NCBI GenBank assembly: GCA_944387485.1
Contig: CALXFC010000001.1
Location: 4,179-68,178, forward strand
Direction of reading: 5' to 3'
Source of the DNA: an uncultured Clostridia bacterium
GTDB taxonomy: Bacteria > Bacillota > Clostridia > TANB77 > CAG-508
DNA: 64,000 bases
How positions within the stretch are numbered: the stretch's first letter is position 1; the number at the start of each line of letters is the position of its first letter. Shown one piece after another: positions 52,948 through 55,555 of this stretch. The translations under genes were made by a program, and so were the position numbers. The notes below the pieces were generated by a model. It was not told where the DNA came from. It did no database searches and saw only the letters and a list, made by a program, of their open reading frames with translations.

Positions 52948-55555
52948 ATTATATCATATCAAAATAAAATAGGGAATTACAACTCCAGAACTTGCTGCTA
53001 AATCTAAAAGGCCATTATATCATATCAAAATAAAATAGGGAATTACAACTAAAAACTTGAAAATAGTGTTATTAACGCAATTATATCATATCAAAATAAA
53101 ATAGGGAATTACAACTCTTTTGTTGTCTATACTTATTTCATTGTTATTATATCATATCAAAATAAAATAGGGAATTACAACAAGGAATAATTGTAGAAAT
53201 TGGTGGAGATAATTATATCATATCAAAATAAAATAGGGAATTACAACTGTAAGAAGTGTCATAATCAAGAACACTTCATTATATCATATCAAAATAAAAT
53301 AGGGAATTACAACCCATCTATAGCGTTTTTCATCATTTGCCTTATTATATCATATCAAAATAAAATAGGGAATTACAACAATCTTTAGTTTCAACCATTT
53401 GTGATGCCAATTATATCATATCAAAATAAAATAGGGAATTACAACAAATGAATTGCTAACAATAAAGCAGATACAATTATATCATATCAAAATAAAATAG
53501 GGAATTACAACAAAGAGGCGAGCCAGTCTGTAAAACTGGTCATTATATCATATCAAAATAAAATAGGGAATTACAACTACTTACACTTTCATTTTTAACT
53601 TTCATCATTATATCATATCAAAATAAAATAGGGAATTACAACTACACACATATTACATATCACGAATATTTAATTATATCATATCAAAATAAAATAGGGA
53701 ATTACAACTAGTTTTAATGGTTGGTTTTATTATAGTGCATTATATCATATCAAAATAAAATAGGGAATTACAACAAACGTGCCTCGTATCCGTCTCCTAC
53801 AGGTATTATATCATATCAAAATAAAATAGGGAATTACAACTACTAATTCTATTACTAATAGTATTTCTAGATTATATCATATCAAAATAAAATAGGGAAT
53901 TACAACTTCTAAGGAGGGTAATTATATGAATATTAAATTATATCATATCAAAATAAAATAGGGAATTACAACAAAACCATATGAGAATATTACTCTTTTA
54001 TGATTATATCATATCAAAATAAAATAGGGAATTACAACTTGTTTTTAAAGCTGTTGTTAATATTGTTAATTATATCATATCAAAATAAAATAGGGAATTA
54101 CAACTAGTATTTTGAATGGTTCTAACGTTGATACATTATATCATATCAAAATAAAATAGGGAATTACAACCACTAACTGCCACGTAAAGCTTATAAAACT
54201 ATTATATCATATCAAAATAAAATAGGGAATTACAACATGAATACCAACAAATGGTACCAGAAATTAATTATATCATATCAAAATAAAATAGGGAATTACA
54301 ACGATAGTGGCGACTATAATATATACGGCTTAATTATATCATATCAAAATAAAATAGGGAATTACAACCAAAGAGAAAAACAATGAAAGAGAGATTTAAT
54401 TATATCATATCAAAATAAAATAGGGAATTACAACTCTGTATTAAAAATATAATCATTATCCAAAATTATATCATATCAAAATAAAATAGGGAATTACAAC
54501 TTGCCAAACATATACATATGAACAAATTGCATTATATCATATCAAAATAAAATAGGGAATTACAACTGGTCTTACATCTACTAAGAAATAATCTTGATTA
54601 TATCATATCAAAATAAAATAGGGAATTACAACTATGTCTATCTTCTCTCTTGTAGCTATATTATTATATCATATCAAAATAAAATAGGGAATTACAACTA
54701 TGTCTCTGTTTACAGATGTGTCAGGAAATTATATCATATCAAAATAAAATAGGGAATTACAACGTAAATTAATAATACTACTATTATTAAGATATTATAT
54801 CATATCAAAATAAAATAGGGAATTACAACTATATTTATATGTATTTTTGAGTTAGTTTTATTATATCATATCAAAATAAAATAGGGAATTACAACAATAA
54901 CATAGATAGCAAAATAGCAAATCAAATTATATCATATCAAAATAAAATAGGGAATTACAACCTTAATAATTTTTTTAACAGAAGAAGACCAATTATATCA
55001 TATCAAAATAAAATAGGGAATTACAACATCACAATCTTTGATATAAAATAATCCTCCATTATATCATATCAAAATAAAATAGGGAATTACAACCTACAAA
55101 AGCGGTATTTGTAAATGGTATTTATTATATCATATCAAAATAAAATAGGGAATTACAACTTATGTTTATAAAGTCGTTCATACTCTCACATTATATCATA
55201 TCAAAATAAAATAGGGAATTACAACTAGTTATGTACTTTTTAGGATAACTAAAAAATTATATCATATCAAAATAAAATAGGGAATTACAACTTCCTAACA
55301 AGGTTTATTCCTGTAATTCCAATTATATCATATCAAAATAAAATAGGGAATTACAACATAATTGTGAGCTTCGTCGACAAACATTTTATTATATCATATC
55401 AAAATAAAATAGGGAATTACAACTATGCAGATATTGAATATTACAGAGATGCAATTATATCATATCAAAATAAAATAGGGAATTACAACAACGGTGTGCA
55501 AGTTAAGACTTTTTTTTAGATTATATCATATCAAAATAAAATAGGGATTATATTT
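52948..55555 (-). CRISPR. CRISPR array: 40 repeats of 36 nt (plus strand ATTATATCATATCAAAATAAAATAGGGAATTACAAC; crRNA sense GTTGTAATTCCCTATTTTATTTTGATATGATATAAT), 39 spacers of 29-31 nt; terminal repeat at 55520-55555 degenerate
   Basis: Exact 66-nt periodicity over about 2.6 kb. The repeat in minus orientation begins GTTGTA... like Neisseria/Campylobacter II-C repeats and ends TGATATAAT (extended -10). Last copy ...GGGATTATATTT is diverged. Confidence 0.97.

Follow-up and report, generated by a model that had tools for sequence, protein, structure and literature searches.

A 64,000-nucleotide (nt) stretch of DNA from an uncultured Clostridia bacterium (CAG-508; contig CALXFC010000001.1; 26.5% guanine plus cytosine, G+C), referred to here as the window, contains a type II-C CRISPR-Cas9 locus (CRISPR: short palindromic repeats that are clustered and regularly interspaced) with its elements in the order trans-activating CRISPR RNA (tracrRNA), cas9, cas1, cas2, terminator and repeat array. 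Every repeat ends, on the strand that encodes the CRISPR RNAs (crRNAs), in an extended -10 promoter sequence, and in all likelihood such repeat-embedded promoters drive the crRNAs of this locus. At the sequence level the locus has all the attributes of the repeat-embedded-promoter class, which is itself well known. Our account of the locus composition, the crRNA strand, the tracrRNA, the presence and conservation of the motif, the terminator and the polarity of spacer turnover draws on the sequence and on comparison with relatives.

The array has the following parts:
52948 to 55555, minus strand: CRISPR array of 39 perfect 36-nt repeats and 1 degenerate repeat, with 39 spacers, of which 37 measure 30 nt and 2 measure 29 nt.
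52948 to 52958, minus strand: example of the promoter core, TATGATATAAT (TRTGnTATAAT, -16/-10 region), a copy of which stands at each repeat's low-coordinate end at intervals of 66 nt, the last at 55520-55530.
55520 to 55555, minus strand: degenerate trailer repeat, in crRNA sense AAATATAATCCCTATTTTATTTTGATATGATATAAT, with positions 1-9 lost and positions 10-36, including the promoter core, intact.

The repeat reads GTTGTAATTCCCTATTTTATTTTGATATGATATAAT in crRNA sense and ATTATATCATATCAAAATAAAATAGGGAATTACAAC on the plus strand. The sequence-only reading that preceded this analysis had proposed an extended -10 element on the minus strand of every repeat, and the element is indeed present at the 3' end of all 40. 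It had also ended the array at 55519; the fortieth, degenerate repeat had been left out, and the end is corrected to 55555. The nonamer TGATATAAT occurs 45 times in the window, compared with 3.9 +/- 2.1 occurrences expected from shuffled sequences, and 40 of the 45 copies lie on the minus strand between 52948 and 55528 at a spacing of 66 nt (twice 65 nt), one at each repeat 3' end. Since the repeats are identical copies, these 40 occurrences count as a single event. The probability of finding TGNTATAAT by chance at 26.5% G+C is about 1e-4 at one fixed position and about 0.6% when any position of a 36-mer and both strands are allowed, and with 40 copies representing one event the case for function must rest on orientation and comparison.

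The orientation follows from the tracrRNA, which lies just upstream of cas9:
47971 to 48000, plus strand: predicted tracrRNA promoter, TTGACA, 18 nt, TATAAT (12/12 matches).
48024 to 48059, plus strand: tracrRNA anti-repeat, ATTATATCATATCAAAGTAGAATAGGTTATTACAAT, complementary to the minus-strand repeat with a score of 32.5 of 36 when G-U pairs count as half.
48060 to 48130, plus strand: tracrRNA tail, with the nexus AAGACC...GTCGTAAAGCTCT, a terminal hairpin at 48102-48123 and TCTTCAT (z = -4.3).

The anti-repeat, 88 nt upstream of cas9, is a near copy of the plus-strand repeat. For comparison we collected 80 loci with Cas9 relatives of 43-89% identity, which yielded 60 arrays and 46 distinct repeats; pairing between repeat and anti-repeat was assessed in 37 distinct pairs and position frequencies in 45 full-length distinct repeats. 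Forty-three related loci share this arrangement, with the anti-repeat on the cas9 strand and 70-180 nt upstream of cas9, and an alignment of the tracrRNA tail from 20 diverse relatives contains compensatory changes at 7/8 predicted pairs. No Rfam tracrRNA family matches the element at an E of 1 or less. A tracrRNA transcribed from the plus strand can pair solely with a minus-strand array transcript, and by this complementarity the crRNA strand is the minus strand. The direction of transcription proposed from the sequence alone is thus upheld by the anti-repeat here and in the 43 relatives and by the conserved tracrRNA tail. The repeat:anti-repeat duplex is near-perfect over repeat positions 11-36, which would allow cleavage by RNase III. 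Read on the minus strand, the repeat also aligns over its full length (1-36) with the Neisseria-type Rfam family CRISPR-DR34; the score of 24.2 bits, against a gathering score of 35, makes it a relative of DR34 that lies outside the family by the Rfam threshold.

It is conceivable that the array is instead transcribed on the plus strand through read-through from cas2. The array would then have the same orientation as the cas genes, and scattered plus-strand promoter-like matches do occur in the AT-rich spacers. We nevertheless regard this scenario as extremely improbable. A plus-strand transcript would have the sense of the anti-repeat and could not pair with the tracrRNA, the plus-strand repeat has neither a TG nor a complete promoter, and the Rfam repeat model matches the minus strand. 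Furthermore, between cas2 and the array stands a strong hairpin with a T-tract behind it:
52898 to 52941, both strands: bidirectional intrinsic terminator hairpin, flanked by an A-tract and, on the opposite side, by a T-tract.

This hairpin has 18 pairs counting A-U extensions and a folding energy of -22.5 kcal/mol (z = -5.5), and it is followed by 7 U on the minus strand and by 5 T on the plus strand. In most relatives a stable hairpin, flanked by A and U runs, begins 5-10 nt beyond the cas2-proximal repeat, and the sequences of these hairpins are unrelated. This recurrence speaks for conservation of a convergent terminator between cas2 and the array, as predicted from folding and position, and lends support to the earlier proposal of a 16-bp bidirectional terminator at 52896-52942. 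We also observed a short conserved minus-strand motif in the gap between repeat and hairpin (52942-52947, and equivalent positions across the comparison set, L001-L080). Close relatives have it as ATTCCC, distant relatives as AGGGAAC or AGGGAC, and it may be a leader-anchoring sequence for integration.

The relationship between transcription and spacer acquisition was examined by comparison with a strain of the comparison set, L081, whose Cas9 is 99% identical. The three cas-distal spacers, the degenerate repeat and one internal spacer are common to L081 and the window, whereas all cas2-proximal spacers differ, and the degenerate repeats of other relatives are likewise at the cas-distal end. 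This distribution implies that new spacers enter beside cas2, at the transcription-downstream end. Read in this way, the locus combines transcription convergent with the cas operon and acquisition at the downstream end, and the region between cas2 and the array takes the role of leader:
52849 to 52947, downstream of the array in the sense of crRNA transcription: region between cas2 and the array, assigned as the acquisition-side "leader" from the strain comparison and the N. meningitidis precedent (PMC12477760).

The cores of eight cas2-proximal spacers were scanned for exact occurrences in viral contigs, and the first and the fourth gave matches, in agreement with the entry of new spacers at that end. 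Spacer 1 (52984-53013) matches 28/30 positions in IMGVR_UViG_2926549205_000005 and spacer 4 (53182-53211) matches 30/30 in IMGVR_UViG_3300031867_000890, both from IMG/VR; in crRNA sense the protospacers are followed on the 3' side by GAAGATTT and TTATGCTT, respectively. We considered using the protospacer-adjacent motif as an independent test of the strand and dropped it, since two protospacers are too few for either motif or strand discrimination. A BLAST search of cultured phages with the whole array returned nothing beyond weak, AT-rich matches attributable to chance, and no self-targeting spacers were found within the window at up to 5 mismatches.

The comparison among relatives provides the second line of evidence. 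The repeat ends exactly in TGnTATAAT in 35/46 distinct repeats and in TGnTAnnnT in 39/46. Bases T26 A27 T28 G29 and T31 A32 T33 A34 A35 T36 are each 89-100% conserved, while the middle of the repeat varies freely, and the least conserved of the last eleven positions is position 30, the "n" of the motif (G 26, A 17, T 2). The resulting form, TATGnTATAAT, is reportedly the TRTGn plus -10 arrangement that Voskuil and Chambliss described in 2002 for Gram-positive promoters. TGnTATAAT is kept in 10/12 loci with flanking G+C of at least 45%, including loci at 55-63%, and is still present where the flanks have 50-63% G+C, which means that base composition does not explain the motif. Pairing with the tracrRNA is not a sufficient explanation either. 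T36 is conserved in 95% of the 37 pairs and paired in 68%, and its tracrRNA partner is conserved in 57%; the TAnnnT hexamer is present in 35/37 repeats compared with 20/37 anti-repeat complements. The terminal bases are kept beyond their tracrRNA partners, and the RNA duplex alone does not account for them.

The degenerate trailer repeats are informative because in this orientation a trailer repeat contributes neither a crRNA handle nor a site of integration. Across 25 distinct degenerate cas-distal repeats, positions 1-8 hold 65 mismatches, positions 9-25 hold 31 and positions 26-36 hold 5; the 5' end is lost and the terminal motif is kept in 24/25. The retained 3' end fits a promoter role for the oldest spacer, and the trailer repeat at 55520-55555 is the predicted promoter of that spacer in the window.

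A different explanation would be that the terminal TATAAT is kept for leader-proximal recognition by Cas1-Cas2, or as the tracrRNA duplex and RNase III site, that the array is transcribed as one long precursor from beyond the trailer, and that the resemblance to a promoter is incidental. Base pairing of positions 26-35 to the anti-repeat is seen in 86-100% of repeat/anti-repeat pairs, the host is AT-rich, and, with acquisition at the cas2-proximal end, the motif lies exactly at the leader-repeat junction. We consider this explanation very unlikely. The pattern of conserved and free positions is that of TRTGnTATAAT, conservation of T36 is not matched by pairing, the motif is retained in G+C-rich hosts and in trailer repeats that have no part in integration or in crRNA handles, and the homologous repeats of Neisseria meningitidis and Campylobacter jejuni have been shown to fire. 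One long precursor would moreover call for an external promoter, and a search upstream of the array found no minus-strand promoter of comparable strength.

Several observations nonetheless weigh against repeat-embedded promoters. The terminal TATAAT is missing in five relatives, L033, L034, L036, L053 and L055, whose repeats end in TATGCT, TATTAG, TATTTT, TTAGACG and TATTGT, and is therefore not obligatory in the family. The arrays of these relatives include the longest seen (39-82 repeats), L055 with 5 repeats being the exception, and they evidently manage without the hexamer; in L036 and L034 we looked for external promoters beyond the trailer and found no clear one. The repeat 3' end is both the leader-proximal Cas1-Cas2 end and, at positions 26-35, a tracrRNA-pairing segment, so its conservation is not uniquely that of a promoter. 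The gradient in the trailer repeats could be an edge effect that proceeds from the outer edge inward independently of function. Among variant copies inside arrays, 8/34 changes fall in positions 26-36 where about 10 are expected, with no significant depletion. No purine enrichment was seen at spacer positions 5-9, the predicted start, though none is expected for captured DNA. Finally, promoter activity in this organism is a prediction from sequence and comparison. The main residual uncertainty concerns the role that preserves the terminal TATAAT: promoter, integrase or duplex signal, or the two together.

The two roles could also be combined. The last eleven nucleotides of the repeat might serve both as a sigma-A promoter for the next spacer and as the end read by Cas1-Cas2, with the hairpin acting as terminator and as part of the leader, a possibility that we think quite unlikely. 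If it were true, the leader-adjacent promoter would fire into the hairpin, starting at about 52941, at the base of the stem, and would produce a small RNA consisting of the hairpin only, and the long-array lineages without TATAAT, L034 and L036, would use the overlapping TTGTAn, 18 nt, TATGnT.

That overlapping element deserves consideration in its own right. As the sequence-only reading had stated, every full repeat contains TTGTAA (positions 2-7) 18 nt upstream of TATGAT. In each case a TG precedes the TATGAT. It is possible, though quite unlikely, that the working promoter is TTGTAA, 18 nt, TGATATGAT (positions 23-31), instead of or besides TGATATAAT; initiation would then occur at about spacer nt 1-3 and give longer guides requiring 5' trimming. 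T26, A27 and T31 are 100% conserved in the 37 pairs (93%, 89% and 100% in the 45 full-length distinct repeats) and are kept even in repeats without the terminal TATAAT, for example in L034 and L036 with TATGGT, and TTG is common at positions 2-4. However, neither TATGAT nor TATGGT is as strong a -10 hexamer, 18 nt is a suboptimal spacing, TTGTAA is lost from the degenerate trailer repeat, and the starts mapped in N. meningitidis and C. jejuni fit the terminal -10. The putative -35 is weak evidence by itself because it lies inside the part of the repeat (positions 1-8) that is conserved anyway for Cas9 and tracrRNA binding and so provides no independent signal. The contribution of this pair is the second uncertainty, and it matters most in the long-array relatives without TATAAT.

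Taken with the preference for the terminal -10, these results lead us to propose the following scheme. Minus-strand transcription of the array would converge with that of the cas operon, and TATGATATAAT at the end of each repeat would act as a -16/extended -10 promoter for the housekeeping sigma factor. From the position of this element at the repeat end, RNA polymerase would start about 5-7 nt into the following spacer, and each transcript would comprise a guide of about 23-25 nt followed by the next repeat. The repeat portion would pair with the tracrRNA anti-repeat, and Cas9 would bind it; trimming on the 3' side may be done by RNase III, which is probably not needed for defining the 5' end. 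Transcripts leaving the array would halt at the hairpin at 52898-52941, as would read-through from the cas operon. Promoters in each repeat would let the newest spacers, at the downstream end of the 2.6-kb array, be expressed without a long precursor. We infer the firing of the motif, the start positions and the dispensability of RNase III from the homologous systems of N. meningitidis and C. jejuni.

In N. meningitidis, repeat-embedded promoters start transcription at the 6th nt of each spacer (Zhang et al. 2013, as summarised in PMC12477760 and PMC5965381), and RNase III processing is dispensable (PMC5965381, PMC12477760). RNase III-independent interference is demonstrated for this species only. 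New spacers there join at the transcription-downstream end (PMC12477760). The likeness to N. meningitidis and C. jejuni suggested from the sequence alone is apparent in the restriction of the operon to cas9-cas1-cas2, the end-to-end alignment with DR34, the closest Cas9 chains and the extended -10 in the last 9 nt. N. meningitidis has the same three cas genes and a 36-nt repeat that starts with GTTGTA and ends in the extended -10 TGCTACAAT, where the window has TGATATAAT. Both arrays are transcribed toward cas2, with starts inside the spacers in N. meningitidis and predicted to be so here, both have the acquisition "leader" at the transcription-downstream end, and the tracrRNA nexus and tail share the form AAGGnn..CCGCAA(A/C)GCTCT followed by a hairpin. 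The window differs from N. meningitidis in the placement of its tracrRNA, immediately upstream of cas9 on one strand with it and adjoining the ribosome-binding site, in its -10, a perfect TATAAT that follows TATG, the Gram-positive -16 motif, and in its host, a low-G+C uncultured Clostridia bacterium.

The repeat of C. jejuni ends in TATGGTAAAAT, near the family consensus TATGGTATAAT found here. As in the minimal type II-C system of C. jejuni NCTC11168, the -10 box is in the 3' part of the repeat; its activity was measured there and is predicted here. The -10 of C. jejuni differs in being TAAAAT preceded by GG, not TG, the arrays there are very short, and the Cas9 is smaller and more distant (5x2g matches the N-terminal half only, E = 8e-46). 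Primary transcripts in C. jejuni start at spacer position 5 from the -10 in the upstream repeat, and RNase III with tracrRNA makes the crRNA 3' end only (Dugar et al. 2013, PMC3656092).

Another type II-C host of the Clostridia is Clostridium cellulolyticum H10, for which Fedorova et al. (2020, PMC7038990) pointed out the similarity of the final nine repeat nt to an extended -10, in an array running antisense to its cas genes. Both traits are shared by the window. The C. cellulolyticum crRNAs carry 23-26 nt of spacer (PMC7038990). These data come from RNA sequencing after expression in Escherichia coli, and internal initiation was proposed and not separated from processing (PMC7038990). The type II-A systems of Streptococcus pyogenes and S. 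thermophilus share Cas9, tracrRNA, the anti-repeat:repeat duplex and RNase III co-processing. They differ in having a single leader promoter upstream of the array that produces a long precursor, with the crRNA 5' end formed by trimming (PMC5965381, PMC12477760); the leader there is both acquisition end and transcription start, and the repeats lack a terminal -10.

The gain for CRISPR biology is small, as repeat-embedded promoters are a textbook feature of type II-C systems. The value of the result is that the arrangement is conserved, as TRTGnTATAAT, across a large clade of Cas9 proteins from mostly uncultured gut and rumen Clostridia, G+C-rich hosts included, and that the crRNA strand, the tracrRNA, the likely guide length (about 23-25 nt) and the array polarity are defined for use of the 1133-amino-acid (aa) Cas9 as a tool.

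The protein-coding genes of the locus are:
48147 to 51548, plus strand: cas9, 1133 aa (TIGR01865, E = 1e-240).
51636 to 52535, plus strand: cas1, type II NMENI subtype (TIGR03639, E = 3e-84).
52528 to 52848, plus strand: cas2 (TIGR01573, E = 2e-26).

The operon is limited to these three genes and lacks csn2 and cas4, which is the gene content of type II-C. Homologues of the Cas9 come from genomes of uncultured gut and rumen Clostridia. Its best full-length matches among solved structures are mostly 8uza, 6jdq, 8ja0 and 8x5v (E = 1e-161 to 1e-223). We take 8uza to be GeoCas9 and 6jdq and 8ja0 to be Nme1Cas9 and Nme2Cas9, chains of type II-C; 8x5v is labelled BlCas9 in the structure search. The top match is 21dz (E = 4.9e-241). 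St1Cas9 and SaCas9 are much weaker matches, and SpCas9 matches over the HNH region only. The 1133-aa protein is assigned to the compact II-C clade by its matches to structure chains.

The promoter at 47971-48000 probably also serves the cas operon. The terminal hairpin of the tracrRNA and its weak tail TCTTCAT end 9 nt before the cas9 ribosome-binding site (48133-48139, in the region 48102-48149). This gap leaves no room for a promoter of cas9 itself, so that cas9 has to be transcribed by read-through, either from the tracrRNA promoter or from a point further upstream, and on this layout the tracrRNA would effectively form the 5' leader of the cas9 mRNA. A similarly tight spacing, 70-95 nt between anti-repeat and cas9, is found in several relatives. 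The minus strand of the anti-repeat (48024-48032) also carries TGATATAAT, which predicts a possible antisense start near 48017, directed toward the tracrRNA promoter.

The locus is flanked by genes for a helix-turn-helix (HTH) protein and a small GIY-YIG protein and by a csoR/copA copper operon; all these neighbours are syntenic in the closest relatives only. The HTH and GIY-YIG genes, which lie upstream, were considered as CRISPR-associated and rejected because of this restricted synteny. The promoter of the copper operon (TTTACA, 17 nt, TATAAT; 55579-55607, plus strand, in the region 55556-55640) begins 24 nt past the trailer repeat, which makes it and the first repeat promoter divergent neighbours. 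The plus-strand composition of the window is skewed (A 44.9%, T 28.6%, G 17.2%, C 9.3%), consistent with the location of nearly all genes on one strand. Other arrangements occur among the relatives: in L061 (14537-14901) the array is inverted, in the sense of the cas genes, and its repeat ends in TATAAC; in L040 (9134-9499) the array lies upstream of cas9; and L004 (7667-7901) has an additional mini-array of 4 repeats with a variant repeat, 437 nt upstream of cas9.

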